In this document: positions 11,886 to 59,419 of the stretch, in pieces | Layout of the letters: each line of letters opens with the position of its first letter | Position numbering within the stretch: position 1 is the first letter of the stretch | Program-made: the position numbers and the translations under genes | The notes under the pieces: model-generated | Databases searched by the model: none | The model's input: only the letters and a program-made list of their open reading frames with translations | Told to the model about the DNA's origin: nothing | Source of the DNA: Planctomycetota bacterium | Lineage (GTDB): Bacteria; Planctomycetota; UBA1135; UBA2386 | Length of the DNA stretch: 64,000 nucleotides | Reading direction: 5' to 3' | Assembly: GCA_965228735.1 (NCBI GenBank) | Contig: OZ245838.1 | Coordinates: 7,129,929-7,193,928 of the forward strand

Positions 11886-14885
11886 TCAGCCGCCCAGGGT
11901 CATCACGAGCCCGTTGCTGACCGAGATCGGGGTCGAGGCGTGCACGGTCTGCACCGTGAACCGCACGCCCGTGAACGTCGACGAGGCCGGGATGTTGAGG
12001 GCGTAGGACCACTGCGGCCCGAACTGCAACACGGACGCCGTCGGTCGCAGGAGGTGGGGCCAGCTCACGCAGTCGGCGGGCAGGACGCCGGGCAGCGCGA
12101 TCGGACCGGTGACGAGGCCGATCACGAGCGCGCTCACGTTGCCCGTCGGCACCGTGCCTCGAACCGGAATCGCGCCGCCGAGGACCGGGTGGCCGGCGCG
12201 CAGCGTCGGTGGGTCGACGTGGCCGCAGCCGTTGCCGAGTCGGTCGACCGTCGCGCGGCCGCGGATGACGCGCAGCTCGACGCCCTTCAGCGGTTCGAAT
12301 GCCGGGAACCAGACACCGCCGCGATGCGCGAGGAGGTCGGTGACGTGACCGATTGCGGCGCCGGGGTCCAGGTCCGCGACCAGGACCGTGCCGGCCGCGG
12401 TGCCGTCCGAGAACCACAGCTCCTTGCCGTGCGTGCCGTCGTCGGCGCGGAAGAACACGCCGCCGGATGCCGGCGTCAGCAGCAGCGGGTCGGAGGCTCC
12501 CGAGCCAGGCCGGATGTCGGCGACCAGTCCCGTTCCCGCGGCGGTGCCGTCGCTCGCGAACAGTTCCCTGCCGCCGCCGGGGCCCGGCGCGACGAAGAAC
12601 AGCCGGTCGTTCGAGACGTTCAGGGTGCCGGCCGTCACGGCGAGGGAGGCGATCTGGATCGTGCCCGCCGCGGTGCCGTCGGTCTTCCAGAGGCCGCTGC
12701 CCGCCGTGAACCACATCTCGCCCGCAAACGCCGTGAAGCCGCTCGGGTTGCCGTTGCCCGGGCCGGGCACGAGGTCCTCAACGAGCGTGGTGCCGGCGCT
12801 GGTGCCGTCGGATCGGAACAACTCGGTGCCGAGCGACGGGTGCCTCGCGTAGAACAGCACCTCGTCGCCAAACGCCGTCACGCTGCCGGGCGCCGGGGCT
12901 GCGCCGGGCTGCAGATCGTGCACCTGGTAGGTGCCGGCGACGGTGCCGTCGGTGGCCCAGAGCTCGTGGCCGTCATGCCAGTGCAGGGCGGTGAAGAACA
13001 GCTTGCCGCCGGCGACGCAGTACGGCCGCGCGTGCGAGGACGCCCCGCCCGGGTTGATGTCGGCGAACTGCATCGTGCCGGCCGCGGTACCGTCGGTGAC
13101 CCAGAGCTCGCGGCCGTCCTGGCCGCCGTCGGCGGTGAAGAACACGCGGCCGTCGAACGCGACGAGGTCGCGCGGATCGCTCGTCGCGGCGCCGGGCCGG
13201 ATGTCGCGTAGCAGGATCGTGCCGGCGGGCGTGCCGTCGGTGCGCCAGACTTCGCGGCCGTTCGTGCCGTCATCGGCGACGAACAGCGTCACGGTCGCGG
13301 CGCCGCGACGGAGGTCGACGAAGGTCGTCGGCGCGCTGCCGCCGGCGCCGGGTTGGAGGTCCGCCAGCAGCGACGTCTGGCCGCCGTCGTGGACCCAGAG
13401 CTCGAAGCCGGTCGCTGGCTGGTAGGCGGCGAAGTACAGCGCGCCCGTGGTGCTGCCGAACAGCTGGCCCGGATAGGCGTCCTCGGTCTGGAAGCCCGGG
13501 TTGCAGTCGAACAGCAGCTGGGTGCCGGCGCTCGTGCCGTCGGTGATCCAGAGTTCGCTGCCACCCTGCCCCTCGCGCGGGTCGTCGGCGCGGAACAGCG
13601 CCGTCAGACCGTTGCCGGTCGGCGTGAGCTCGAGCGGCGAGCCGCCGGTCGCGCCCGGCACGATCTCGCGCACGCGCAGAGTGCCCGCTGCGGTGCCGTC
13701 GGTGTGCCAGAGCTCGGGTCCGCCGCTGCCGTCGTCGGCCGACAACAGGAACGACCCGCCCGGCATCGCGGTCAGGCCGCTGGGATCGCTGTCACCGACG
13801 CCGGGGTGGATGTCGGCGACGAGGCTCACGGTGTTGCCGACGAGTCGATAGAGCTCGGTGCCGGTGCTCGGCTGTGTGCCGGCGAGATAGAGCGTCGCGC
13901 CGTCCAGCAGCATCAGCCGCACGTCCGTCATCATCGGCAGCGGGATCACGGACGTGCCAGCCGCGGTGCCGTCGGTGCGCATCAGGCGGTTGGCGACGCC
14001 GTCGGACGCGCGGAAGAACAGCTGGCCGCCGAGCACCGCGGGCGGACCGCGATCGGGATGGAGCTGCGGGAGCGACCAACCGCTGCCGGGATCGAGGTCC
14101 GCGAGCAGGTTCGTTCCAGCGCTCGTGCCATCGGTCCGCCAGAGCTCGACGCCGTGTATGCCGTCGTTGGCCCGGAACATCATCCCGCCGCCGAGCGCGA
14201 CGAACTGCTCGGGCTGGCTGCTCGCGACGAGGCCGGTGCCCGGGCGGATGTCCTTCAGCCGGAACGTGCCGGCCGCGGTGCCGTCGGTGCGCCACGGTTC
14301 GTCACCGGCCTGGTCGCGCCCGCTGAAGTAGACCACCGTCCCGGCCTGATCAGCCGCGAAGTGTTGCGCCGAGGACACGCCCGAGAACAACGCAACCGTG
14401 CCGTTCGCCGTGCCGTCGCTGAGGTAGAGCGTGTTGCCGGCCGAGAACAGCAGCGCGCCGTTCCATTCGAACAGCTCCGGGCAATGGCCGGACTGCACGA
14501 TCGACGTGCCGGCCGCGGTGCCGTCGGTTCGCAGCAGCCCGTTCGACGTCGCGGCGTAGACGATCGAACCGAGGCAGATCAGCGAACGCGGGTTCGCGCT
14601 GGCCTGCCCGGGCGCGAAGTCGACGACCATGCTGGTGCCGGCGGCGGTGCCGTCGGTCTTCCAGATCTCGTTCCGCTCGTCGAACGTCGTCGCGACGAAG
14701 AACCACTCGTTGCCGCACCGCACGAACCCGTGCGGGCTGCCGTCGCGCTCGAAGCCGACCTGGTTGACATCGTGGACGAGCTCGATCGGTCCGATCGGGC
14801 CCTGCGCCGCCAGTAGCTGGGAGGCGATGACGAGGGCGACGAGGACGACGAGAACGGGGGGAGAACGGTGGGGGCGCGGGCTCAT
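11886..14885 (-). CDS. ELWxxDGT repeat protein, secreted, with the shared C-terminal domain
   Basis: Many ELWxTDGTAAGT repeats; signal peptide. Confidence 0.92.
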   Translation of the reverse strand: MSPRPHRSPPVLVVLVALVIASQLLAAQGPIGPIELVHDVNQVGFERDGSPHGFVRCGNEWFFVATTFDERNEIWKTDGTAAGTSMVVDFAPGQASANPRSLICLGSIVYAATSNGLLRTDGTAAGTSIVQSGHCPELFEWNGALLFSAGNTLYLSDGTANGTVALFSGVSSAQHFAADQAGTVVYFSGRDQAGDEPWRTDGTAAGTFRLKDIRPGTGLVASSQPEQFVALGGGMMFRANDGIHGVELWRTDGTSAGTNLLADLDPGSGWSLPQLHPDRGPPAVLGGQLFFRASDGVANRLMRTDGTAAGTSVIPLPMMTDVRLMLLDGATLYLAGTQPSTGTELYRLVGNTVSLVADIHPGVGDSDPSGLTAMPGGSFLLSADDGSGGPELWHTDGTAAGTLRVREIVPGATGGSPLELTPTGNGLTALFRADDPREGQGGSELWITDGTSAGTQLLFDCNPGFQTEDAYPGQLFGSTTGALYFAAYQPATGFELWVHDGGQTSLLADLQPGAGGSAPTTFVDLRRGAATVTLFVADDGTNGREVWRTDGTPAGTILLRDIRPGAATSDPRDLVAFDGRVFFTADGGQDGRELWVTDGTAAGTMQFADINPGGASSHARPYCVAGGKLFFTALHWHDGHELWATDGTVAGTYQVHDLQPGAAPAPGSVTAFGDEVLFYARHPSLGTELFRSDGTSAGTTLVEDLVPGPGNGNPSGFTAFAGEMWFTAGSGLWKTDGTAAGTIQIASLAVTAGTLNVSNDRLFFVAPGPGGGRELFASDGTAAGTGLVADIRPGSGASDPLLLTPASGGVFFRADDGTHGKELWFSDGTAAGTVLVADLDPGAAIGHVTDLLAHRGGVWFPAFEPLKGVELRVIRGRATVDRLGNGCGHVDPPTLRAGHPVLGGAIPVRGTVPTGNVSALVIGLVTGPIALPGVLPADCVSWPHLLRPTASVLQFGPQWSYALNIPASSTFTGVRFTVQTVHASTPISVSNGLVMTLGG

Positions 14886-41327: not shown

Positions 41328-41537
41328 GTTGGAAGCGGGTTCGGACGGATATCGTCGAGCGGAGAGTGCGCGCGACGTGATGGCTCTTGGTGTCGCCGCG
41401 AGTCGCGGCGGTTGAGGCAGTTCTCCGATTTCCGCGAGCGACGTCCCGCCGGCGTTCGCAGGCCGCCGTTGCCCGCGCACGCGTCGCCGCGTCCTCCCGC
41501 AACCGTGTCAGCACTTCAGCGCCCGCGAGCCCGCGCC

Positions 41538-41821: not shown

Positions 41822-43824
41822 GTGTGTCCTGAACGCCAATCCTCACCCGAGGTGAGGCGATGCTGTGTCGAACCAGCGGGTGCGAGTCCCGTCGCGGTAA
41901 GCGCCGAGCGCCGCGTAGCAGGCTCCAGCCGTCGCGAGAGATCGCGCCGGCCACAGCGGAGCGTCGAAAGCCCGCGTCGGGGTGTATGCCCCAGACGGGG
42001 GGAGCAAAGTCGCAGGCCCAATCCGAAAGGGTGAACCTTGCAGCCTCGTGAGAGTAGAGACCCGAAAGGTGGGAAGGCCGAGCCGATCATGTCGCGGCGA
42101 AGGCAACAGACTGCGTCCGAGTACGGAGCGGCGCAGGACTTCCCCGGGGTAGGGAGGAGGGCATGCGACGAAGGCTCGACACGGACCAGGAGAGGCCCTA
42201 CCCAGCAGCCGACGTCAGGCGAAGCGCGCGTCCATAAGCCGAGTGCGAAAGGACGCCGTGCTGGGAGGGAGTCCGAGGGGTTCGTAGTACCGACGAAGCC
42301 GGCGGCCACAACGCCGGCAGAGGGAAGGGGCCCTGCTTTGGTCGCGCGCGTGTCTGGGGGTAAGTGCGAGGGCATGGCCGCAAGGCCCAACAACCCCGTA
42401 GACAAAGTACGAGAACTCCAACACGCGCTCTTTCGTGCCGCCAAGCGCAACCCAGGGCGGCGTTTCCACGCGCTATCTGATCGGATCTGCCGGGGTGACG
42501 TCCTGCAGAGGGCGTGGAAGCGAGTGCGGAGCAATGGTGGAGCTGCCGGCATCGATGGCTTGTCGCTGTCGATGATCGAGCAGCGGGGCGTCGAGCACTT
42601 CCTCGCGGAGGTGTGCGACGAGATCGGGTCCGGGCGCTACCGACCGCAGCCGGTGCGGCGCGTGTGGATCCCGAAGCCGGACGGCAGGCAGCGACCGTTG
42701 GGCATCCCGACGGTCAAGGATCGGGTGGTGCAGATGGCGGCGAAGCTCGTGATCGAGCCGATCTTCGAGGCTGGTTTCGAAGCGTGCAGCTATGGCTTCC
42801 GTCCTCGACGGAGTGCCACGGACGCACTGGAGAAATTGCGCATCGAAGGCGGGCGAGGTTGCCGCTTCGTCGTCGACGGCGACATCCAGAGCTTCTTCGG
42901 CACGATCGACAAGGTCGTGCTGATGGATCTGGTGAGCCGGCGAATCTGCGATCGCCGCGTGCTGAAGCTGCTGCGGAAGTGGCTGGACGCAGGCGTGATG
43001 GAGGAAGGCAATGTGAAGCACGATGCCACGGGCACTCCCCAGGGCGGCGTGATCTCGTCGTTGCTCGCCAACATCTACCTGCACGAACTCGATCGCGAGT
43101 GGCAGCGCGACTGCCAGCATCTCGGCGTCCTGGTGCGATACGCGGACGATTTCGTGGTGCTGTGCAAGAGCGAGTCGCAAGCGAACGAGGCGATGCGACG
43201 GCTGCGCGCGATCTTCGCGCGGTTGAAGCTCACGCTGCATCCGGAGAAGACGAAGCTCGTGCAGATCGGGCTCGGCAAGGACGGCTTCGACTTCCTCGGC
43301 TGTCACCTGCGGATCGTGAAGTCCCACTTCAAAGGGCGCACGTATCTGTTTCGGTGGCCGTCGGTGAAGTCGAAGAAGGCGGTCCGCAGCCGGGTGCGCG
43401 AACTGACGGACCGCCGCCACCGTGCTGGTCTGAAGGACGTCGACGAGGTGATCGCTGACCTCAACCCCGTGCTGAAGGGCTGGGGGAACTACTTCAAGAC
43501 CGGCAACGCGAGCAAGCAGTTCAACCAGATCGACTACTACGTCTGGCGGCGCATCACGCGCATGCTTGGCAAGCAGCGTGGCTTTCATGGTCATCGGCTT
43601 GCCTGGCGCGTGGCGCACCAACGGGCTGCGTGGCCGCTGGAGAAGCTGCGTGAGCGTGGCCTGCACAAGCTGCTCGGCACGATCCAATACCCAGGGAGCA
43701 AGACGGCATGAACAAGACCATCGGTCAGCCGTGTGCGGGAAAACCGCATGCACGGTTGGAAAGGGGGGCTTGGTTGCTGCGGGCTTGCTTCTTCAACAAG
43801 GTCCAGTAACCAAGCTCTACCAAT
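41822..43824 (+). mobile_element. Group II intron
   Basis: 5' GTGTG; domain V agccgtgtgcgggaaaaccgcatgcacggtt; domain VI with bulged A ending ctctAccaat; internal RT ORF. Confidence 0.92.
42374..43711 (+). CDS. ltrA: Group II intron reverse transcriptase/maturase (no endonuclease domain)
   Basis: RPLGIPTVKDR, SYGFRP, GTPQGG, YADD, domain X LNPVLKGWGNYF. Confidence 0.95.
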   Translation: MAARPNNPVDKVRELQHALFRAAKRNPGRRFHALSDRICRGDVLQRAWKRVRSNGGAAGIDGLSLSMIEQRGVEHFLAEVCDEIGSGRYRPQPVRRVWIPKPDGRQRPLGIPTVKDRVVQMAAKLVIEPIFEAGFEACSYGFRPRRSATDALEKLRIEGGRGCRFVVDGDIQSFFGTIDKVVLMDLVSRRICDRRVLKLLRKWLDAGVMEEGNVKHDATGTPQGGVISSLLANIYLHELDREWQRDCQHLGVLVRYADDFVVLCKSESQANEAMRRLRAIFARLKLTLHPEKTKLVQIGLGKDGFDFLGCHLRIVKSHFKGRTYLFRWPSVKSKKAVRSRVRELTDRRHRAGLKDVDEVIADLNPVLKGWGNYFKTGNASKQFNQIDYYVWRRITRMLGKQRGFHGHRLAWRVAHQRAAWPLEKLRERGLHKLLGTIQYPGSKTA

Positions 43825-45068
43825 GCGCAATCTGCTCCTGGCAGCAACTCTGGTTCTTGTCGTTGTGGTCGTTTGGCTCTGTGTGGAAGCGGGCGCGGGC
43901 GTCACCAACGGCCCGCTGCCGGGGGGGGGGGCAGAATCCGGGGCATAGTCGCGAGGATGTTGGGGGGGCGGCGCCTTCGCTGTCTGACGAATCCGGCAGC
44001 GGAGTGCGTGACCGCGCGCCTGTCATCCCGGGTCCGTCCGCCAAGCGGGCCCGATCGGCCACCGTGCGAGTCGTTGTGGTTGATGAAGTTGACAAGCTGC
44101 CCGTCAAGGACATACCCGTCATCCTGCGGCGCGCTTCTGGAACCCCAGTCACCTTCCTTGGTTCAACTGGAGACGGGGGGGATGTCGAGTTCGCGGCCGT
44201 TCCGCACGGGACTTATCGGCTCGTGGAGCCGAAGCGAACTGAAGCACCGATCCGCGAGTTGCAAGGTCTTGGTAATGCGTCGCGGACGTACGACTGGAAG
44301 GTCGAGGCTTCGCCTTATCACGATAAGGTGATCGAAGTTGTTGACGAGTCGGGGGCGCCCGTCGGGCAAGCTCAGCTTTGGGTGGACAGCGAGGTGCCCG
44401 TGCGTATCGGGTGTACCGATGCTTCTGGCCGCGCGAGCTTGCGCATGCAAGCCAACTCGCCTGGGCTGACCGTTCGGCGGCTTGGTTTCAAGGTTCGCAG
44501 GCTTGTGCCTTCGGCTCTGGGGCAGCGGGAGTTGTCAGTGTCCTTGGAGCGCGGAGGTGCCGCGATTTCGGGGCGACTCATGGGCGGGGGCGGCCTGCGC
44601 GGAAAGTCCGTGCAGGTGACTCTCTTGTCGTTGAGTAGCCTGCCGCCAAAGGTAGTTGCAGTGCAGAGTATCCCGCTTGGTCAAGTATTCGAGTTCGTTG
44701 GCCTTGAGGCAGGAGACTACCGCGTGATTGCCACAGTCGATTCTCTGGCGGCGGCGACGACGGAGGCGGCCTGTGCGGAGCGCGGTCTGACTGCTTGCGA
44801 CCTATTTGTTGCTCCTGTGGAGCCACTGATGGGATCGGTGGCGGGGCCCGATGGTCGCCCGATCGCAGGGGCTTTCGTTACGATCTACCTCGGTGGCCAC
44901 TCGGCCGCAGAGTGTCGAACTGGTGAGGATGGTCGCTTTGTCGTGTCGGGCTTGCCGTTGGCGCCGCTGCGGGTCTTCGCGGCGATCGCTGGGACGGATC
45001 GCTGTGGGAGCACCGATGTTGTTCGGTCCAAGGCGTGTGGCAAAGCCGTGCAGGTTGTTGTTCCGTGA
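43823..45068 (+). pseudogene. Carboxypeptidase-regulatory-like membrane protein frameshifted at a G11 tract
   Basis: MRNLLLAATLVLVVVVVWL.. joins GGGQNPGHSRED...VVVP* if G11 (43921-43931) is read as G10. Confidence 0.7.
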
Positions 45069-45172
45069 TAGCCTGTCGCCCACGCCGAAACCCCTGCACA
45101 CCGTAGCCGTTAATCCCGGCACCAAAGTCATCGCTCTCCTCAACCCCGGCAGAGAGCCGGAAAGGCAGACCG

Positions 45173-46642
45173 ATGACCGATTCGCAGAGACCAGAAGACA
45201 ACGCTGACCAGCCGACCATTCCGATCGGGCCCGAGCCGACCTCGCAGTTCCCGCTGACGCCGCAGGCGCCCGGGATCGGCGGCGGAGAGGAGACGCACGG
45301 CGAAGCCGGGCGACTCCTCGGAGCCGGCGATCCCGGGCGGGCGCCAACCCCCTCGACGACAGGCGACCTGCCGCCCGAGCTCGCAGGCCGTCGTCGCTCG
45401 CGCACGCGCCGCCGTGTCGTGCCGCAACCGCGTCAGCATTTCAGCGCCCGCGAGCGCCTGCTGATCCTGGACACCTGGCAGCGCTCGAAGCTGCCGGCAA
45501 AGGACTTCGCTGCGCTCGTCGGAGTGTCGCCGCATTCGCTCTACAAGTGGCGCAGCCGCTTCCAGGAGGAAGGGCCGGCGGGCCTCGAGGATCGCCCGAA
45601 GGGCCCCGGGCCCGGCAGCCGCCTGTCGGACGAGACGAAGCGCGCGATCCTGATGATGAAGCAGGCGCATCCCGAGTGGGGCCAGGATCGCCTGCACTCG
45701 ATGCTCATGCGCACGCAGGGCCTCGCTGCGAGCCCAGGTGCGATCGGTCGCTACCTGGAGGAAGAGGGCTACGTCGTCGAGGACGTGCCGACGAAGCCGC
45801 ACCCGGACAAGCCACGACGCTTCGAGCGCAGCAAGCCGAACCAGATGTGGCAGACGGACCTGTTCACCTTCGTCTTGAAGCGTCAGAACCGACGTGTGCA
45901 CCTGGTCGGCTTTCTCGACGACTACAGCCGCTACCTCGTCGGCTTCGGACTGCACGCGAGCAGCTCCGGTGCGATGGTGCGCGAGGCGCTGGAGTCGGCG
46001 ATCGCCAACTACGGTGCGCCCGACGAAGTGCTGACCGACAACGGGACGCAGTACAAGACCTGGCGCGGCAAGAGCGCCTTCACCAAGTTGCTCGAGCGTC
46101 GCGGGATCAAGCAGATCGTCGCCAGCCCGCGGCATCCGCAGACGCTGGGCAAGATCGAGCGCTTCTGGGGGACGCTGTGGCGCGAGTGCGTGCAGCAGGC
46201 AGTGTTTCGCGATCTCGACGACGCGCGTGATCGCATTCGTCAGTTCGTCGATCACTACAACTTCCAGCGCACGCATTCGGGGATCGACGGCATGGTGCCG
46301 GCGGATCGCTACTTCGAATCAGCGCCGCAGGTGCTGGAGACGCTGCGCGAGCAGGTGAAGGCCAACGCCAAAGAACTCGCGCAGAACGGCGCACCGCGCA
46401 AGACCTTCTACCTGACGGGTCGAGTCGGTGACTCCAACATCTCGCTGCATGCCGAGGGCGAGCGGGTCGTGCTGACGAAGGAGGACGGCAGTCGCGAAGA
46501 GGTCGACCTCGGCGCGACCGGCCGGCGGGCCGAAGTCGGGAGCGAATCTGACGTCGAAGGGCCCGGCGAGTCTCCCCTCGATGCCGCTCTGCAGGACCTG
46601 TCCGACGGTCTCGATTCGGAGACCGGGGAGGACGACTCGTGA
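45173..46642 (+). CDS. IS481-like DDE transposase
   Basis: HTH; WQTD, LTDNGTQY, GKIERF. Confidence 0.9.
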   Translation: MTDSQRPEDNADQPTIPIGPEPTSQFPLTPQAPGIGGGEETHGEAGRLLGAGDPGRAPTPSTTGDLPPELAGRRRSRTRRRVVPQPRQHFSARERLLILDTWQRSKLPAKDFAALVGVSPHSLYKWRSRFQEEGPAGLEDRPKGPGPGSRLSDETKRAILMMKQAHPEWGQDRLHSMLMRTQGLAASPGAIGRYLEEEGYVVEDVPTKPHPDKPRRFERSKPNQMWQTDLFTFVLKRQNRRVHLVGFLDDYSRYLVGFGLHASSSGAMVREALESAIANYGAPDEVLTDNGTQYKTWRGKSAFTKLLERRGIKQIVASPRHPQTLGKIERFWGTLWRECVQQAVFRDLDDARDRIRQFVDHYNFQRTHSGIDGMVPADRYFESAPQVLETLREQVKANAKELAQNGAPRKTFYLTGRVGDSNISLHAEGERVVLTKEDGSREEVDLGATGRRAEVGSESDVEGPGESPLDAALQDLSDGLDSETGEDDS

Positions 46643-47169
46643 CGGCGAAGAAGCCACGCCCGAAGCCGGCGGGGCCGAAGGCCCTGACCGGCAGCGACGA
46701 GGCCAAGCGCCGCGCCACGGTCATCCTCGAAGCGATGTGTGGGCTTCGCACCACGCAGTCCGCCAGCGATGAGCTGCGCATCGCGCTCGTGCGCTACTAC
46801 GTGCTCGAGACGCGCATGCTGCAGGCGATGATCGACGCGCTGGAGCCGCGTGCGCGCGGTCGCAAGCGCGACATCGAGGCGGAACTCAAGCAGGTCCGCG
46901 AGGACGCCAAAAAGACGCAGCGCGAGCTGATGCGTCTGCAGGCGTTGCACCGCGTCACGCAGCGCGCTGTGTGCGTCAAACCGGACAAGCCCGCCAAGTC
47001 GGCCAATTCAAAAGGCGGAGCCCCGGTGAAGAAGCGTCGCACCCGCAAGCAGTCACGCGGTGAGCGCGTGCTCGCGGCGATGAAGGCTGCCGAGTCCGAC
47101 GCTGCACCGGCGTCCTTGCCCGCGCCGAGTGCTATCGTGACGCGACAACCAGACGAGGGAGTGGCGTGA
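46639..47169 (+). CDS. OrfA-like HTH/coiled-coil protein 1
   Basis: Aligns by eye with the next ORF; basic tail. Confidence 0.7.
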   Translation: MTAKKPRPKPAGPKALTGSDEAKRRATVILEAMCGLRTTQSASDELRIALVRYYVLETRMLQAMIDALEPRARGRKRDIEAELKQVREDAKKTQRELMRLQALHRVTQRAVCVKPDKPAKSANSKGGAPVKKRRTRKQSRGERVLAAMKAAESDAAPASLPAPSAIVTRQPDEGVA

Positions 47170-47170
47170 C

Positions 47171-47578
47171 ATGACGATGGGACGGCCGAACAAAGGACTG
47201 GATCACCTCGACAAGTACGACGTCTCCGAGCAGAGCCAGCTGCGCGGTCGCATCGTCATGCAGACCATCACGGGCGAGCTCTCGGTGGCAGATGCGTGCG
47301 AGCAGCTCGGTGTCGATCGCTCGCGCTTCTGGCGTCTGCGTGACCAGGCGCTGCAGTGGTATCTGGAGTCCTTCGAACCTGGCCGTCCCGGTCGTCCTCG
47401 GAAGCGAGACGCGGATGCCGAGACCGAAGAGCAAGCTCTGCGTGATCGTGTCGCGCAGCTCGAGCGTGAGCTCCGTCTCGCGGAAGCGCGGGCGGATCTC
47501 GCCGGTCTCGATCCAAAAAAAGTGACGCCGGAACCACGGCGCATGAGCCGACAGGAGCGGCGACGAAGAAGCCGGTGA
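47171..47578 (+). CDS. OrfA-like HTH/coiled-coil protein 2, with a -1 frameshift site
   Basis: LSVADACEQLGVDRSRFWRLR; A7 tract at 47515-47521. Confidence 0.8.
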   Translation: MTMGRPNKGLDHLDKYDVSEQSQLRGRIVMQTITGELSVADACEQLGVDRSRFWRLRDQALQWYLESFEPGRPGRPRKRDADAETEEQALRDRVAQLERELRLAEARADLAGLDPKKVTPEPRRMSRQERRRRSR

Positions 47579-48651
47579 ACGCCACTGCGGGCAAGCGCTG
47601 GGCTGCGATCGACGTATCGCGTCAGGTGATCGCGAACGTCGTGCGCGACCTCGGCGTGACCTGTCGTCGTGCCGGCGAGTTACTGCGCTGCTCCGCGTCG
47701 ACAGTGTCCGCCTGGATGCAGCGCGCGGCGCGCGCTGCCATCGGCACGCCCTATCGCAGGCCAGGTCGTCCGACTCTGGCCGCCGATCGACTGGCCCGCA
47801 ACGACGTCTACGCCACGCTGCAGGCGCACGGCGGTCGCATCTCGGATCAGGAGCTCAAGCAGGCATACCCGGACGTCGGTCGCGCGGAGCTGCGGCGACT
47901 CAAGGCGCGATGGCGTCGGCTGTCGGCCCGGCTGCGCCGTCGCCGTCTCGAGCAGTTGACCTGGGAGTGCCCGGGCGCGATCTGGGCGATGGACTTCGCC
48001 GAGTTACCCGGCGGCATCGAAGACCTCGGCAAGCACCTGCTCGTCGTGCGCGACCTCGCCAGCGGCGCTGTGCTCGAGGCTGCCGCGTGCCGGGCGCAAG
48101 ATGCCGCGCACGTCGTCCGTGTGCTCCGCCGACTGTTTGCCGAGCATGGCGCCCCGCTCGTCCTCAAGAGCGACAACGGGAGCGCCTTCGTCAGCCATGC
48201 TGCGCAGGCGCTGCTCGCCGCACACGGCGTGCTGCCGCTCTTTTCGCCCCCCGGGACGCCGGCATACAACGGTGGCTGTGAGGCCGGCGTCGGCAGCGTG
48301 AAGTCGCGCGCTGTGGCCATCGCGAGCATGCGCGGCGTCGACTGTGGTGTCACGCTCGACGACTTGCACGACGCGGTCGCGCAGAGCAACGCGCAGCCGA
48401 TCGCGCGGCGCGCCGGCTCGCCGCTGCGCGGGCCAACGTGGCTTGCTCGGGCGCCGCTAACGGCCGCGATGCGAGCTGGCCTGTGCCGCCGCGTCGAGCG
48501 GCATCGCGGGAGCGCCTGCCGTGCTCGGGGGATTGCCTGGGGCGCCGACCTCCCGCATCATCTACGGGCTTCGATTGATCGCTTCGCGATCGGTCGAGCG
48601 CTTCGTGAACTCCGTTTCCTATCAACCCGGAGAGCCGACTTTGCTGCCTGA
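47575..48651 (+). CDS. Second DDE (rve) transposase, OrfB-like
   Basis: WAMDF, LKSDNGSAF, PAYNGGCE; in the -1 frame relative to the upstream ORF. Confidence 0.88.
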   Translation: MNATAGKRWAAIDVSRQVIANVVRDLGVTCRRAGELLRCSASTVSAWMQRAARAAIGTPYRRPGRPTLAADRLARNDVYATLQAHGGRISDQELKQAYPDVGRAELRRLKARWRRLSARLRRRRLEQLTWECPGAIWAMDFAELPGGIEDLGKHLLVVRDLASGAVLEAAACRAQDAAHVVRVLRRLFAEHGAPLVLKSDNGSAFVSHAAQALLAAHGVLPLFSPPGTPAYNGGCEAGVGSVKSRAVAIASMRGVDCGVTLDDLHDAVAQSNAQPIARRAGSPLRGPTWLARAPLTAAMRAGLCRRVERHRGSACRARGIAWGADLPHHLRASIDRFAIGRALRELRFLSTRRADFAA

Positions 48652-48691
48652 TTGCTCAGCCAGGGTGTGCAGTGTTTGGCGGGGGCGTACA

Positions 48692-49065
48692 CAAGCGACG
48701 GAGTTCAGCGGGTCGTACGGTTGAAGGCAATCGGTCGACCCAAAGTCGAGGTCTTTCCACAGCCGCTTGTGCTCGTGGGGGGGGCGGGGCAGCGAGCCGA
48801 GGACGCTTTTGAGCTACGTGTGACCGTGCCGGTTGACTGTCCGGCCCCGACCGTGTCGGGGGTGGAGGTCGGCGCTGAGTGGGGGGTGGTCCCTACCACA
48901 GCGAGGCTGCGGTCCCGCACGGACGGCGATCAGGTTTGGAGCTTGCCGTTCAGCGTTGCTTTCTCGGATTCGGCCGGCACGCATACTGCGAGCTGGAGTG
49001 CGTCGCTCGAGTTTGGTGATTCGCAGGCTTCCTTTCGCGGGACCCTGATCGCTGTTGTGCGCTGA
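48692..49065 (+). pseudogene. 3' fragment of a beta-rich protein gene cut by the element
   Basis: Open frame from the element end to the stop at 49065. Confidence 0.5.
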
Positions 49066-49414
49066 GTAGCAGCGGTACCCGAGTTGTTCGCGGCTGAGCT
49101 ACTCAGCCGCCCACCGTGAAGCCGCCGAGGCAAGCGCACGGGATCCTGGCTCCGCGGCCTGATCCAGCCGCGTCCGGGCCACGGCTTGGCCTTACGTCGA
49201 CTGGTCGCAGCAGGAGTTCGGCATTGCCGCAGCACTGTCGGGGGACGAGGCGATGCTTCGAAGCGTGCTTGTCCGCTCGTCTGGGGATCCGTACCTGGCG
49301 TTTCGCCAAGCAGGTCGGCGCGGCACCGGCCGCGCAACTTCGGGATTGGGGTCGGTCGGCAGCGTCGTCGGGCAGCGAGTAGGCCGAATCGTGTTCACGC
49401 ATTTTCGGACACTA

Positions 49415-49471
49415 CAGGGTCAGAGGATCCTACCAGCCGTCACGCGAATACACCGTCCATCACACACTCCC
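49415..49471 (-). mobile_element. 57-bp isolated IS256 left end flanked by a 7-bp direct repeat
   Basis: Reverse complement matches 57921-57977 with a few differences; GACACTA at 49408-49414 and 49472-49478. Confidence 0.75.
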
Positions 49472-49658
49472 GACACTAGTCATTGCGGGCCAAGTAAGAG
49501 TTTCTTGTGCCGACCTAAGTGGTTCTTCCGAATCGAGTTAACTGACGGTCGGCACCCTGCCACCACTATCCGGTTTTAAGATGCAGGCGTACCGTGGGTG
49601 GGGCGCGAGTGCTGTACCCGCGTCCAACATTCGCAAAAGTCAAAACGACAGGAAAATC

Positions 49659-49787
49659 ATGATAAAGAGTTTTGCTCTGAGTTTAATCACTCTCTTTGTT
49701 ACTGCGGGGGCGGCCTCCGCTCAGTGGTCTAGCTGGTCCGTCAGCGATGCGCAGAAGTCCATGGAGCTAACGCCCATCACTCATAAC
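49659..49787 (+). pseudogene. 5' fragment of a secreted-protein gene truncated by IS3
   Basis: MIKSFALSLITLFVTAGAASAQW.. ends exactly at the IS terminus. Confidence 0.6.
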
Positions 49788-51704
<1,917 letters not shown>

Positions 51705-51803
51705 TGTCGCCCACGCCGAAACCCCTGCACACCGTAGCCGTTAATCCCGGCACCAAAGTCATCGCTCTCCTCAACCCCGGCAGAGAGCCGGAAAGGCAGA
51801 CCG

Positions 51804-53273
51804 ATGACCGATTCGCAGAGACCAGAAGACAACGCTGACCAGCCGACCATTCCGATCGGGCCCGAGCCGACCTCGCAGTTCCCGCTGACGCCGCAGGCGC
51901 CCGGGATCGGCGGCGGAGAGGAGACGCACGGCGAAGCCGGGCGACTCCTCGGAGCCGGCGATCCCGGGCGGGCGCCAACCCCCTCGACGACAGGCGACCT
52001 GCCGCCCGAGCTCGCAGGCCGTCGTCGCTCGCGCACGCGCCGCCGTGTCGTGCCGCAACCGCGTCAGCATTTCAGCGCCCGCGAGCGCCTGCTGATCCTG
52101 GACACCTGGCAGCGCTCGAAGCTGCCGGCAAAGGACTTCGCTGCGCTCGTCGGAGTGTCGCCGCATTCGCTCTACAAGTGGCGCAGCCGCTTCCAGGAGG
52201 AAGGGCCGGCGGGCCTCGAGGATCGCCCGAAGGGCCCCGGGCCCGGCAGCCGCCTGTCGGACGAGACGAAGCGCGCGATCCTGATGATGAAGCAGGCGCA
52301 TCCCGAGTGGGGCCAGGATCGCCTGCACTCGATGCTCATGCGCACGCAGGGCCTCGCTGCGAGCCCAGGTGCGATCGGTCGCTACCTGGAGGAAGAGGGC
52401 TACGTCGTCGAGGACGTGCCGACGAAGCCGCACCCGGACAAGCCACGACGCTTCGAGCGCAGCAAGCCGAACCAGATGTGGCAGACGGACCTGTTCACCT
52501 TCGTCTTGAAGCGTCAGAACCGACGTGTGCACCTGGTCGGCTTTCTCGACGACTACAGCCGCTACCTCGTCGGCTTCGGACTGCACGCGAGCAGCTCCGG
52601 TGCGATGGTGCGCGAGGCGCTGGAGTCGGCGATCGCCAACTACGGTGCGCCCGACGAAGTGCTGACCGACAACGGGACGCAGTACAAGACCTGGCGCGGC
52701 AAGAGCGCCTTCACCAAGTTGCTCGAGCGTCGCGGGATCAAGCAGATCGTCGCCAGCCCGCGGCATCCGCAGACGCTGGGCAAGATCGAGCGCTTCTGGG
52801 GGACGCTGTGGCGCGAGTGCGTGCAGCAGGCAGTGTTTCGCGATCTCGACGACGCGCGTGATCGCATTCGTCAGTTCGTCGATCACTACAACTTCCAGCG
52901 CACGCATTCGGGGATCGACGGCATGGTGCCGGCGGATCGCTACTTCGAATCAGCGCCGCAGGTGCTGGAGACGCTGCGCGAGCAGGTGAAGGCCAACGCC
53001 AAAGAACTCGCGCAGAACGGCGCACCGCGCAAGACCTTCTACCTGACGGGTCGAGTCGGTGACTCCAACATCTCGCTGCATGCCGAGGGCGAGCGGGTCG
53101 TGCTGACGAAGGAGGACGGCAGTCGCGAAGAGGTCGACCTCGGCGCGACCGGCCGGCGGGCCGAAGTCGGGAGCGAATCTGACGTCGAAGGGCCCGGCGA
53201 GTCTCCCCTCGATGCCGCTCTGCAGGACCTGTCCGACGGTCTCGATTCGGAGACCGGGGAGGACGACTCGTGA
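51804..53273 (+). CDS. IS481-like DDE transposase (copy 2)
   Basis: Translation identical to 45173-46642. Confidence 0.9.
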   Translation: MTDSQRPEDNADQPTIPIGPEPTSQFPLTPQAPGIGGGEETHGEAGRLLGAGDPGRAPTPSTTGDLPPELAGRRRSRTRRRVVPQPRQHFSARERLLILDTWQRSKLPAKDFAALVGVSPHSLYKWRSRFQEEGPAGLEDRPKGPGPGSRLSDETKRAILMMKQAHPEWGQDRLHSMLMRTQGLAASPGAIGRYLEEEGYVVEDVPTKPHPDKPRRFERSKPNQMWQTDLFTFVLKRQNRRVHLVGFLDDYSRYLVGFGLHASSSGAMVREALESAIANYGAPDEVLTDNGTQYKTWRGKSAFTKLLERRGIKQIVASPRHPQTLGKIERFWGTLWRECVQQAVFRDLDDARDRIRQFVDHYNFQRTHSGIDGMVPADRYFESAPQVLETLREQVKANAKELAQNGAPRKTFYLTGRVGDSNISLHAEGERVVLTKEDGSREEVDLGATGRRAEVGSESDVEGPGESPLDAALQDLSDGLDSETGEDDS

Positions 53274-53800
53274 CGGCGAAGAAGCCACGCCCGAAGCCGG
53301 CGGGGCCGAAGGCCCTGACCGGCAGCGACGAGGCCAAGCGCCGCGCCACGGTCATCCTCGAAGCGATGTGTGGGCTTCGCACCACGCAGTCCGCCAGCGA
53401 TGAGCTGCGCATCGCGCTCGTGCGCTACTACGTGCTCGAGACGCGCATGCTGCAGGCGATGATCGACGCGCTGGAGCCGCGTGCGCGCGGTCGCAAGCGC
53501 GACATCGAGGCGGAACTCAAGCAGGTCCGCGAGGACGCCAAAAAGACGCAGCGCGAGCTGATGCGTCTGCAGGCGTTGCACCGCGTCACGCAGCGCGCTG
53601 TGTGCGTCAAACCGGACAAGCCCGCCAAGTCGGCCAATTCAAAAGGCGGAGCCCCGGTGAAGAAGCGTCGCACCCGCAAGCAGTCACGCGGTGAGCGCGT
53701 GCTCGCGGCGATGAAGGCTGCCGAGTCCGACGCTGCACCGGCGTCCTTGCCCGCGCCGAGTGCTATCGTGACGCGACAACCAGACGAGGGAGTGGCGTGA
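53270..53800 (+). CDS. OrfA-like protein 1 (copy 2)
   Basis: Translation identical to 46639-47169. Confidence 0.7.
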   Translation: MTAKKPRPKPAGPKALTGSDEAKRRATVILEAMCGLRTTQSASDELRIALVRYYVLETRMLQAMIDALEPRARGRKRDIEAELKQVREDAKKTQRELMRLQALHRVTQRAVCVKPDKPAKSANSKGGAPVKKRRTRKQSRGERVLAAMKAAESDAAPASLPAPSAIVTRQPDEGVA

Positions 53801-53801
53801 C

Positions 53802-54209
53802 ATGACGATGGGACGGCCGAACAAAGGACTGGATCACCTCGACAAGTACGACGTCTCCGAGCAGAGCCAGCTGCGCGGTCGCATCGTCATGCAGACCATC
53901 ACGGGCGAGCTCTCGGTGGCAGATGCGTGCGAGCAGCTCGGTGTCGATCGCTCGCGCTTCTGGCGTCTGCGTGACCAGGCGCTGCAGTGGTATCTGGAGT
54001 CCTTCGAACCTGGCCGTCCCGGTCGTCCTCGGAAGCGAGACGCGGATGCCGAGACCGAAGAGCAAGCTCTGCGTGATCGTGTCGCGCAGCTCGAGCGTGA
54101 GCTCCGTCTCGCGGAAGCGCGGGCGGATCTCGCCGGTCTCGATCCAAAAAAAGTGACGCCGGAACCACGGCGCATGAGCCGACAGGAGCGGCGACGAAGA
54201 AGCCGGTGA
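53802..54209 (+). CDS. OrfA-like protein 2 (copy 2)
   Basis: Translation identical to 47171-47578. Confidence 0.8.
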   Translation: MTMGRPNKGLDHLDKYDVSEQSQLRGRIVMQTITGELSVADACEQLGVDRSRFWRLRDQALQWYLESFEPGRPGRPRKRDADAETEEQALRDRVAQLERELRLAEARADLAGLDPKKVTPEPRRMSRQERRRRSR

Positions 54210-55282
54210 ACGCCACTGCGGGCAAGCGCTGGGCTGCGATCGACGTATCGCGTCAGGTGATCGCGAACGTCGTGCGCGACCTCGGCGTGACCTGTCGTCG
54301 TGCCGGCGAGTTACTGCGCTGCTCCGCGTCGACAGTGTCCGCCTGGATGCAGCGCGCGGCGCGCGCTGCCATCGGCACGCCCTATCGCAGGCCAGGTCGT
54401 CCGACTCTGGCCGCCGATCGACTGGCCCGCAACGACGTCTACGCCACGCTGCAGGCGCACGGCGGTCGCATCTCGGATCAGGAGCTCAAGCAGGCATACC
54501 CGGACGTCGGTCGCGCGGAGCTGCGGCGACTCAAGGCGCGATGGCGTCGGCTGTCGGCCCGGCTGCGCCGTCGCCGTCTCGAGCAGTTGACCTGGGAGTG
54601 CCCGGGCGCGATCTGGGCGATGGACTTCGCCGAGTTACCCGGCGGCATCGAAGACCTCGGCAAGCACCTGCTCGTCGTGCGCGACCTCGCCAGCGGCGCT
54701 GTGCTCGAGGCTGCCGCGTGCCGGGCGCAAGATGCCGCGCACGTCGTCCGTGTGCTCCGCCGACTGTTTGCCGAGCATGGCGCCCCGCTCGTCCTCAAGA
54801 GCGACAACGGGAGCGCCTTCGTCAGCCATGCTGCGCAGGCGCTGCTCGCCGCACACGGCGTGCTGCCGCTCTTTTCGCCCCCCGGGACGCCGGCATACAA
54901 CGGTGGCTGTGAGGCCGGCGTCGGCAGCGTGAAGTCGCGCGCTGTGGCCATCGCGAGCATGCGCGGCGTCGACTGTGGTGTCACGCTCGACGACTTGCAC
55001 GACGCGGTCGCGCAGAGCAACGCGCAGCCGATCGCGCGGCGCGCCGGCTCGCCGCTGCGCGGGCCAACGTGGCTTGCTCGGGCGCCGCTAACGGCCGCGA
55101 TGCGAGCTGGCCTGTGCCGCCGCGTCGAGCGGCATCGCGGGAGCGCCTGCCGTGCTCGGGGGATTGCCTGGGGCGCCGACCTCCCGCATCATCTACGGGC
55201 TTCGATTGATCGCTTCGCGATCGGTCGAGCGCTTCGTGAACTCCGTTTCCTATCAACCCGGAGAGCCGACTTTGCTGCCTGA
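54206..55282 (+). CDS. Second DDE transposase (copy 2)
   Basis: Translation identical to 47575-48651. Confidence 0.88.
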   Translation: MNATAGKRWAAIDVSRQVIANVVRDLGVTCRRAGELLRCSASTVSAWMQRAARAAIGTPYRRPGRPTLAADRLARNDVYATLQAHGGRISDQELKQAYPDVGRAELRRLKARWRRLSARLRRRRLEQLTWECPGAIWAMDFAELPGGIEDLGKHLLVVRDLASGAVLEAAACRAQDAAHVVRVLRRLFAEHGAPLVLKSDNGSAFVSHAAQALLAAHGVLPLFSPPGTPAYNGGCEAGVGSVKSRAVAIASMRGVDCGVTLDDLHDAVAQSNAQPIARRAGSPLRGPTWLARAPLTAAMRAGLCRRVERHRGSACRARGIAWGADLPHHLRASIDRFAIGRALRELRFLSTRRADFAA

Positions 55283-55322
55283 TTGCTCAGCCAGGGTGTG
55301 CAGTGTTTGGCGGGGGCGTACA

Positions 55323-55957
55323 GCGTCGGGAGAATGACTGATGAAGCCGGGCAATTCAGTTTTGACGGCATTTACGCGAGGGATGTATTGGAGATTGCGG
55401 TTGACGCGTCGGGTTTCAGAAGTGCTCAAAAGACTATAGGGCCGGGCGAAGGTGATGGAGTAGACTTTGTCTTAGATTGTGGGCATAGCGTGACAGTGGA
55501 AGTTGTAGAGCAGGGAGGTAGAGCCGCGCCGTTCTATGCAGTTCCGCTTGGTGGTGGTGGGCATTCGGACCGTATGGGGAAGGGGATAGTGGTTTGGCGC
55601 CAGCTGCCAGACGTCGTCACTTTTGGGGTGCAAGTTAGTGGTTGTCGATTTGAGGTTGTGCACAGGGCGGAAGAGTCAAGGGCGAGGATCGAAATACCGC
55701 CGCTTGGAAGTCTGAAAGCGCAAGCACGTGGCCTCTCTACTAGGATGTTGCAGCACGCAGATCATGTACGAGTGGAGTTGCAGCTGCTCGACAGGGCGCC
55801 GGCGGAGCCATTTCAAATTGTGCTGGATGAGGCAGTAGACGTATTGGCAGGGCGATACAGAGCGCGACTAATAGGTGGCGAGATCGGTGAGTCAGCGGCG
55901 GTGGTTCAGGACGTGGACGTGCTTCCGGGGCGCTTGGTGGAGATTACGTTCAAGTAG
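55323..55957 (+). pseudogene. 3' fragment of a carboxypeptidase-regulatory-like gene, lower GC
   Basis: MTDEAGQFSFDG..DASGF; begins at the element end. Confidence 0.6.
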
Positions 55958-57920: not shown

Positions 57921-59284
57921 GGGAGTGTGCGATGAACGGTGTATTCGCGTGACGGCTGGTGGGATCCTCTGACCCGTAGGGAGCCCACCGATGACCCCGA
58001 AGAAGAATGACCGCCACCGAATCCCGGACGAGCTGATCGACCAGCTCCTCGCCAACTACGAGAAGCCAGAAGACCTGACAGGAAAGGACGGCATCCTCAA
58101 GGAGCTGACGGCCCGGCTGCTCGGCCGAGCCCTCGAAGGCGAGATGACCGAGCACCTCGGCTACGAGAAGCACGCACCGCGTGCCGAGGGCACGAGCAAC
58201 GCGCGCAACGGATCACGCAGCAAGACGATCAAGGTCGAGGACGGCGAGCTCGAGATCGAGGTGCCGCGCGATCGCGACAGCACGTTCGAGCCCGAGATCG
58301 TCAAGAAGCGCCAGAGACGCTTCGCGGGCTTCGACGAGAAGATCCTGGCGCTCTACGCCCGCGGCATGACCGTCCGCGACATCCAGGGCCACCTGGAGGA
58401 GCTGTACGGCGTCGAGGTCTCGCCATCGCTGATCTCGAGCGCCACGTCGGCGGTCCACGAAGACGTCCTGGCCTGGCAGAGCCGGCCGCTCGAGCCGGTC
58501 TACCCGATCGTCTTCCTCGATGCGCTCGTCGTGAAGGTGCGCGACGAAAGCGTCGTCCGAAACAAGTCGGTTTACCTGGCGATCGGCGTCACGCTCGACG
58601 GCCGCCGCGAAGTCCTCGGGATCTGGATCGAGCAGACGGAGGGCGCCAAGTTCTGGCTGAAGGTCATGAACGAGCTGAAGACGCGGGGCGTCCAGGACAT
58701 CCTGATTGCGTGCTGCGATGGCCTGAAGGGCTTCCCGGACGCGATCGAGCACGTGTTCCCGCAGGCCACCGTGCAGACCTGCATCGTGCACATGATCCGG
58801 AACTCGCTGCGCTTCGTCAGCTACAAGGATCGCAAGGCCGTCGCCAAGGACCTCAAGCCGATCTACACGGCGGCCAACCGTGAAGCCGCCGAGGCAGCGC
58901 TGGATGCCTTCGACAAGAAGTGGGGCCGCCGCTACGAGATGATCACCTCGTCCTGGCGAGCGAACTGGGAGCGTGTCGTGCCGTTCCTCGACTTCCCGCC
59001 CGAGGTCCGGCGCGTGATCTACACGACCAACCAGATCGAGGCGCTCAACTCGAGCCTGCGCAAGCTGCTGCAGTACCGCGGCCACTTCCCGGACGACAAG
59101 TCCGTCACCAAGCTGCTCTACCTCGCGCTGCGTCGCTTCGAGAAGAAGTGGACGCGTGCGCTCTGGAATTGGAGCGCCGTCCTCGGGCAGCTCGCTATCT
59201 TCTTTCAAGGCAGGATACCTGCCCTGTAACCGTGACCTCACTCCGCCAGCTGGTCGCCGTTTACACCGTTAGCTGCACACTCCC
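57921..59284 (+). mobile_element. IS256-family element (complete, 1364 bp)
   Basis: IRs GGGAGTGTGCGATGAACGGTGTA / GGGAGTGTGCAGCTAACGGTGTA; no matching TSD. Confidence 0.95.
57991..59229 (+). CDS. IS256 transposase
   Basis: VPRDR..FEP, VFLDA, CCDGLKG, QTCIVH, YTTNQIE. Confidence 0.97.
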   Translation: MTPKKNDRHRIPDELIDQLLANYEKPEDLTGKDGILKELTARLLGRALEGEMTEHLGYEKHAPRAEGTSNARNGSRSKTIKVEDGELEIEVPRDRDSTFEPEIVKKRQRRFAGFDEKILALYARGMTVRDIQGHLEELYGVEVSPSLISSATSAVHEDVLAWQSRPLEPVYPIVFLDALVVKVRDESVVRNKSVYLAIGVTLDGRREVLGIWIEQTEGAKFWLKVMNELKTRGVQDILIACCDGLKGFPDAIEHVFPQATVQTCIVHMIRNSLRFVSYKDRKAVAKDLKPIYTAANREAAEAALDAFDKKWGRRYEMITSSWRANWERVVPFLDFPPEVRRVIYTTNQIEALNSSLRKLLQYRGHFPDDKSVTKLLYLALRRFEKKWTRALWNWSAVLGQLAIFFQGRIPAL

Positions 59285-59383
59285 CCTTCGGAGTTCGAGA
59301 GCAACTACTACAATCAACAACGAGCTGCTGCCGCGGTGGTGGCACTCAACTAACCGAGCCTCCGGAGAACCCGGGGCGGTTCA
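59285..59383 (+). mobile_element. IS3-family right-end remnant
   Basis: Inverted copy of 49788-49886 ending CCGGGGCGGTTCA. Confidence 0.9.
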
Positions 59384-59419
59384 GCAGCCGCTGACTACCC
59401 TGGACTGTGGGGTTCTGAG

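Follow-up and report, generated by a model that had tools for sequence, protein, structure and literature searches.

An insertion sequence family with an IS481-type and an IS3-type DDE enzyme, unequal ends and no target duplication in Planctomycetota and other phyla

How does an insertion sequence (IS) move when one pair of inverted repeats encloses two different DDE transposases, both apparently intact? The question is raised by a 3618-bp element that occurs twice in a 64,000-nucleotide stretch of the genome of a Planctomycetota bacterium (assembly GCA_965228735.1, contig OZ245838.1, positions 7,129,929 to 7,193,928), hereafter the window. In the answer favoured here, to which we give an even chance, the element is a single IS with two transposases, an IS481-type enzyme encoded by its first open reading frame (ORF1) and a likely fused IS3-type enzyme encoded by ORF3 and ORF4, which copies itself out as a circle and joins its unequal ends to separate sites, probably with one enzyme per end, the intervening DNA being lost.

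The two copies in the window, A and B (Table 1), differ from each other by 0 mismatches and have different flanks, and a third identical copy (copy C) lies at G000 C1:4801594-4805211, 2.4 Mb away in this single-contig genome. The TGT..ACA termini and the imperfect inverted repeats of ~29 bp, described together with the two identical copies in an earlier note made from the sequence alone, were found again at both ends. The repeat is not an assembly artefact, because independent public runs rebuild the 3618-nt unit and its junction contigs: one contig of exactly 3618 nt corresponds to the element in three public runs from three studies (X5, X6 and X7, the last from a study that may be the source of the genome), separate contigs in these runs span the left junction of copy A and the right junction of copy B, and the right flank of copy C is present in runs X8/X9. 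A variant ~98.5% identical over the first 2.4 kb, lacking the flanks seen in the window, was observed in run X14 (a macroalgae metagenome), from which it follows that the element occurs in another host.

Between the repeats lie four tightly coupled ORFs, with no internal inverted repeat and no intergenic space of the kind expected from one IS nested in another, and with two intact-looking catalytic triads. The earlier note was right on each of these points, and the triads are conserved in 63/63 (ORF1) and 62/63 (ORF4) dereplicated elements. ORF1 passes the IS481 model NF033577 of NCBIfam (233.2 bits, cut-off 224), and its predicted structure has an integrase-like fold nearest to IstA and TnsB. 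ORF3 and ORF4, scored apart, match consecutive parts of NF033516 with 22 and 80 bits (cut-off 160), and the fold predicted for ORF4 is likewise integrase-like, nearest to retroviral integrases and TnsB. The plasmid matches closest to ORF4 are IS3 transposases; the nearest annotated plasmid relatives are the IS481-like ISEc19 and IS3-labelled genes, at 30-34% identity, and PLSDB plasmids contain no full-length ORF4 and no relative of ORF2. None of the four ORFs encodes an ATPase, and a scan for sigma-70 promoters returned none. ORF2 and ORF3 resemble each other (blastp 26% over 88 amino acids, E 1e-9; profile-profile probability 99.5), which upholds the likeness part of the suggestion that the element carries two OrfA-like paralogues; what did not stand is a simply free ORF3, which is most likely the N-terminal half of a frameshifted OrfAB. 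Complex prediction of ORF2 with ORF1 and ORF3 gave a score of 0.01, which is no answer and counts neither way.

The ORF4 reading frame is open from 47470, in the -1 frame relative to ORF3, and a run of seven A lies in their overlap. In two sets of elements, ORF4 is shifted by -1 against ORF3 in 44/50 and 38/50, and 43/50 and 46/50 (89/100) carry a run of A6 or longer, or A5G3, in the final 120 nt of ORF3, the corresponding counts at the other gene ends being 0/50, 1/48 and 3/50. These sequence features make it probable that ORF3 and ORF4 together yield the second enzyme, a fused OrfAB of IS3 type. Transcriptional slippage is as plausible a route to this fusion as ribosomal frameshifting, because the runs are mostly 7-9 A long and no downstream hairpin is conserved.

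The four genes travel together. Among the best 80 of 191 loci selected with ORF4 (alignment query with 41 of 120 homologues listed), 58 have all four genes in order, 13 run into a contig or locus edge and 9 are internally truncated, and among the best 80 of 531 metagenome loci selected with ORF1, 49 are complete, 3 lack a detectable ORF2, 26 are cut by a contig end and 2 are internally truncated. ORF1 stands alone away from a contig end in 0 of these 80 ORF1-selected loci, and all six loci with ORF4 only are 5'-truncated and lack the ORF4 N-terminus, four of them aligning to the right end of full-length relatives. The gene order in both sets supports the earlier proposal that the unit moves as a whole, and neither half was seen alone with its own inverted repeats in the loci examined. 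The ORF4-selected genomes are labelled Planctomycetota, Acidobacteriota, Myxococcales, Gemmatimonadota, NC10, Elusimicrobiota, Desulfobacterales, Betaproteobacteria and others, and within Planctomycetota ORF4 was matched in 43/401 genomes and ORF1 in 41/401. More distant ORF1 relatives (38-45% identity) form a group of 2.8-3.35 kb that shares these ends and has three genes, the two DDE genes and an accessory gene that overlaps the end of ORF1 in 13/14 loci; below this range come solo IS481-like genes (31-35%), at which no convincing family-type ends were found. In the three-gene subgroup L141-L154, the accessory gene was observed to overlap a long C-terminal extension of ORF1 and to meet ORF4 in the +1 frame in 10/12 cases. 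Short remnants of the 5' region of related two-transposase elements also persist at 41438-41530 of the window (85%) and at G000 C1:4784539-4784622 (89%).

Both enzymes are maintained and have been inherited jointly. In trees of the 63 dereplicated elements, compared for the co-divergence that the earlier note had proposed as a check, 15/23 splits with support of at least 0.95 are shared between ORF1 and ORF4 and 1 is in conflict, 0.2 being expected to be shared by chance. Ratios of non-synonymous to synonymous substitution rates (dN/dS) of 0.06-0.51 for ORF1 (13 pairs) and 0.14-0.63 for ORF4 (14 pairs) show that both DDE genes are under purifying selection. The idea that an IS3 element is nested in an IS481 element, that one enzyme is a decaying passenger or that the unit is an assembly artefact draws on the separate resemblance of the two halves to IS481 and IS3 and on a solo ORF1-like gene at 35% identity (L155), but it is very improbable and already largely refuted: internal ends and intergenic space are lacking, order, triads and selection are conserved across many phyla, every ORF4-only locus is 5'-truncated, and the unit is rebuilt by independent runs, with which 36 insertions on contigs of at least 170 kb agree.

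Target duplications are not seen above chance at insertions of this unit. Element ends were set from alignments of the copies present in one genome; further elements were added where their ends resembled these and carried TGT/ACA, and 63 + 25 = 88 insertions were scored, the first set having numbered 64 before L174p, with its misplaced left end, was dropped. The flanks overlap by 0, 1, 2, 3 and 4 bp in 36, 19, 6, 1 and 1 of the 63 insertions, against 43, 14, 5, 1.3 and 0.3 with shuffled pairing, and by 0, 1 and 2 bp in 17, 6 and 2 of the second 25. Duplications of at least 3 bp are present in 2/63 (~1.7 expected from shuffled pairing) and 0/25 insertions, that is 2/88, which is chance level, and none reaches 5 bp. 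The same result was obtained for the 36 insertions on contigs of at least 170 kb, and no duplication was found at any of the three copies in this genome, where, as controls, IS256 has its 8-bp duplication in 8/10 copies and an IS3-like element has 3-4 bp in 3/5. Long duplications, tested up to 400 bp on 38 insertions, were not found either. Shuffling of flanks among copies was considered and rejected, as 5/86 cross pairs reach 3-4 bp, again chance level.

The sequences on the two sides of the element are unrelated. Pfam scans of 84 + 109 flank frames yielded a match in 18 relatives, with the same family on both sides in 0/18, and the translations, read by eye, show an interrupted gene facing an unrelated one across the element. 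The clear cuts place a beta-CASP nuclease opposite the middle of an RHS gene (L146) and the middle of an IS256 opposite another gene (L166 and copy B of the window). The 195 bp missing from the IS256 cut by copy B were found nowhere in the genome as an orphan, nor were the other 558 bp of the IS3-like element holding that IS256, and because both parts are absent as orphans the DNA at copy B was lost rather than moved. The nested chain at 49787-51704 consists of the 3' 748 bp of the IS3-like element, cut by the IS256, which is itself cut by copy B.

Two readings of particular flanks were discarded. The left flank of copy A and the right flank of copy B both contain a CarboxypepD_reg domain; they are not two halves of one gene, as the left gene ends in stop codons before the element. 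A reciprocal exchange in genome G294, where an orphan IS256 5' half lies near the position of the L166 cut, was rejected on two grounds: the orphan is of the other IS256 variant, and the sequence that it now adjoins is something other than the upstream portion of the gene in the L166 right flank. In G294, at L184:4002-4643 and at L186:7835, the orphan 5' half of IS256 variant 1 breaks at most 2 nt from the element's cut in variant 2, a coincidence that may reflect a target hot spot, a trace of precise excision or chance. Right flanks of L007, L021, L060, L080, L146, L150 and L167 often begin inside RHS/YD or associated genes and read away from the element. The right-flank gene lies on the element's strand in 10/10 callable cases, which is not used as evidence given that 44/54 were not callable.

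Left and right differ in the element as well as beside it. The two ends have an inner motif in common (CGAAAT-like), and its distance from the tip is one base greater in the left inverted repeat (IRL) than in the right (IRR) in 42/52 and 29/32 end pairs (71/84). Over the first 500 bp, the right flank has a lower G+C content (GC) than the left in 47/53 insertions (0.57 vs 0.63), corresponding to 33/36 genomes (p 2e-7), with 17/21 in a second set, and the gap closes by 1.5 kb from the element. A heteromeric transposase with one enzyme per end, as suggested in the earlier note, fits both the unequal ends and the unequal flanks. ORF1 and the ORF3-ORF4 fusion would then be encoded by one IS that is copied out as a circle, by analogy with IS911; its two unequal ends would be joined to two separate sites, probably by one enzyme each; and the DNA between these sites would be lost instead of duplicated, giving replacement of the target, with ORF2 possibly serving as an OrfA-like regulator or bridge. 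In its strongest form, a new mode of transposition in which two unrelated DDE enzymes each serve one end, the two sites are chosen independently (the right one AT-rich) and every insertion is a replacement, the proposal is tentative, and we put it at somewhat under an even chance.

The flanks and the missing duplications could also arise after insertion. Under this explanation, the element enters AT-rich DNA by ordinary coupled insertion, and nearly every copy later suffers an adjacent deletion at one end, usually the left; the duplication disappears with the deleted DNA, and what then adjoins the left end is host-like sequence. The enzymes would divide their work by step or both act on both ends. 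It accounts for the GC asymmetry and for the cut IS256 at copy B, and one-ended products were seen at L150 and L038. Adjacent deletion is moreover a known route to missing duplications, and in IS3 elements it rises with fused OrfAB (PMC11708052, excerpts). The deletion must nevertheless hit almost every copy, including identical young sets of 3 copies here, 4 in G401, 5 in G294 and 7 in G402, and it must bring duplications of at least 3 bp down to chance level across the 88 insertions, whereas most IS256 and IS3 copies of this genome have retained their duplications. We consider it less likely than the favoured reading, but it is the main competitor, and the genomic data fit either.

Junctions between element ends bear on both the circle and later rearrangement. 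An IRR-C-IRL junction occurs at L229, an IRR-AT-IRR junction at L038 and a 37-bp tandem IRR at L150. In all three an end has attacked at or close to another end, which agrees with the single-strand transfer of copy-out/paste-in transposition (PMC2909936 and PMC7780238, excerpts). In eight runs of contigs the window's own element yielded no circle junction. Within each of the pairs L237/L238 and L226/L230 one flank is common and the other different, a pattern that short-read chimaeras could also produce.

Several observations weigh against the favoured reading. The junction at L229, the sole junction support for a circle, is one short-read contig end, and L150, L237/L238 and L226/L230 show or allow one-ended changes after insertion, which favours adjacent deletion. 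The GC asymmetry is absent from the first 500 bp beside copy A, where GC is 0.63 on the left and 0.67 on the right. Searches for an empty site in the eight runs of contigs, in 30 relatives with the copy-A right-flank frame and through paralogues in G402 and G276 yielded none, so that the loss is measured as a minimum only (195 bp at copy B). With support of at least 0.9, 20/33 splits are shared by the two enzyme trees and 9 are in conflict; ORF4 evolves faster than ORF1 (mean identity 33% vs 55%); and because the two genes are physically linked, the agreement of their trees shows joint inheritance and not enzymes working together. In 5/50 and 12/50 elements the frame of ORF4 is +1 instead, cases that may be homopolymer variants or errors, and no conserved hairpin was found downstream of the A-run in the family (mean z -0.19, n=43), the window's own element having one at its candidate frameshift site (z -2.6).

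A division of labour by step rather than by end would have one enzyme make the circle and the other open it, the linear copy then being patched into existing breaks or rearrangement junctions without target cutting. No target motif was found beyond a weak G next to the tip, which suits such patching, and insertions of IS481 and IS5 without duplication have been observed at deletion and duplication junctions, for which a patching route was proposed (PMC11708052, excerpts). Those events are exceptions in the parts of that paper considered, but the rule here, and patching alone does not explain the AT-richer right flank or the family-wide one-base difference between the ends, which makes this explanation decidedly improbable.

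Comparison with known systems sets the family apart from each of them. Prokaryotic IS481 elements have ends that begin TGT and carry one transposase gene, and some IS481 entries in ISfinder carry passenger genes. The present family resembles them in ORF1 and in its TGT..ACA ends, which recur in relatives whose ends were fixed by multi-copy alignment, and differs in its second conserved DDE gene, two OrfA-like genes and lack of duplication. For IS481, target duplications of 2-15 bp, mostly 6 bp, are described, and IS481EU ends also begin TGT (PMC10045372, excerpts). The resemblance to IS3 and IS911 seen in the sequence comprises the consecutive NF033516 matches, phase 0/-1, an A-run in the overlap, an OrfA with helix-turn-helix (HTH) and coiled coil and the abutted IRR-IRL junction seen once, whereas the junction spacer is 1 nt here against 3-4, and the 3-5-bp duplication is missing (IS911 features from excerpts of PMC2909936). 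ORF3 and ORF4, scored apart, stay below the cut-off of the IS3 model, and the family differs from IS3 also in having an additional full transposase and an OrfA paralogue upstream; ORF1 is always upstream in complete elements, so OrfAB is not the sole transposase. Tn7 and IS21 likewise need more than one protein, and their IstA and TnsB are nearest in fold to the ORF1 model; the partner in those systems, however, is TnsA, which is a restriction-like nuclease, or one of the ATPases IstB and TnsC, in place of the second DDE enzyme seen here, where no AAA+ ATPase is encoded. Eukaryotic Spy transposons are DDE elements without target duplication (PMC4122938, excerpts); they belong to another superfamily with one DDE enzyme, and the flanks here are non-contiguous, not just blunt. 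Despite its IS481- and IS3-like parts, the family thus fails defining features of both, namely a single transposase and a target duplication (PMC10045372, excerpts). No description of it was found in the literature searched, in which subscription journals and ISfinder were not covered; the accessible part of 10.1101/2024.01.22.576637 carries no mention of IS481 or IS3, and PMC2909200, matched by the phrase 'two different transposases', proved to be a false match in its accessible part.

In the accepted view, an IS moves with a single transposase acting symmetrically and leaves a short duplication behind. Both expectations are broken by this family, which occurs in many uncultured phyla and combines two DDE enzymes with unequal ends and the absence of a duplication. 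It bears on how the asymmetric and symmetric steps of copy-out/paste-in transposition are divided between proteins, and on whether a dedicated pathway, as opposed to a side reaction, can place an IS at deletion junctions. Such elements, whose genes are now labelled as two neighbouring transposases, would also generate deletions in Planctomycetota and similar genomes, a source that has been overlooked. If each enzyme does serve one end, the family would represent a mobile deletion tool trimming foreign AT-rich islands such as RHS loci, with element ends that could be aimed separately.

Table 1. Coordinates in the window of the element copies, their genes and their flanks.
Feature	Position	Strand	Description
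Element copy A	45074..48691	+	3618 bp, TGT..ACA ends, without target duplication
IRL of copy A	45074..45102	+	left inverted repeat; inner motif one base further from tip than in IRR
IRR of copy A	48663..48691	-
ORF1	45173..46642	+	489 amino acids; IS481-type DDE transposase: HTH, HTH, rve, C-terminal beta domain; D229 D289 E329
ORF2	46639..47169	+	OrfA-like protein with HTH and coiled coil, paralogous to ORF3; without conserved slip site to its neighbours
ORF3	47171..47578	+	IS3-type OrfA (HTH + coiled coil); NF033516 positions 5-85; likely N-terminal part of OrfAB fusion
A7 run, ORF3/ORF4 overlap	47515..47521	+	candidate -1 frameshift or transcriptional slippage site; predicted fusion ~493 amino acids
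ORF4	47575..48651	+	358 amino acids, rve; IS3-type OrfB DDE enzyme; D140 D200 E236; NF033516 positions 101-334
Element copy B	51705..55322	+	identical to copy A
Copy B genes	ORF1 51804-53273, ORF2 53270-53800, ORF3 53802-54209, ORF4 54206-55282; A7 54146-54152
Left flank of copy A	43566..45068	+	carboxypeptidase-regulatory-domain gene, stop codons just before element
Right flank of copy A	48692..49065	+	open frame lacking a start of its own; apparent 3' fragment of a gene; no match in Pfam or NCBIfam
Left flank of copy B	50536..51704	-	IS256-family element cut inside transposase gene; first 195 bp missing
Right flank of copy B	55323..55957	+	3' part of unrelated carboxypeptidase-regulatory-domain gene, cut inside domain, GC 0.55

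The surroundings of the two copies contain further mobile DNA, including a group II intron at 41874-43820 (Rfam RF02003, RF00029), whose reverse transcriptase/maturase (42038-43711) looks intact, and a full IS256 copy at 57921-59384, which is without target duplication and adjoins a 109-bp end fragment of the IS3-like element. A 94-bp repeat present three times (29360, 34891, 41538) and a 215-bp repeat present twice (31354/36072) may mark the ends of integrated elements. Coding tandem repeats at 12340-14700 and 8950-10340, with spacings of ~144 bp and 150-190 bp, belong to genes that probably encode beta-propeller surface proteins.

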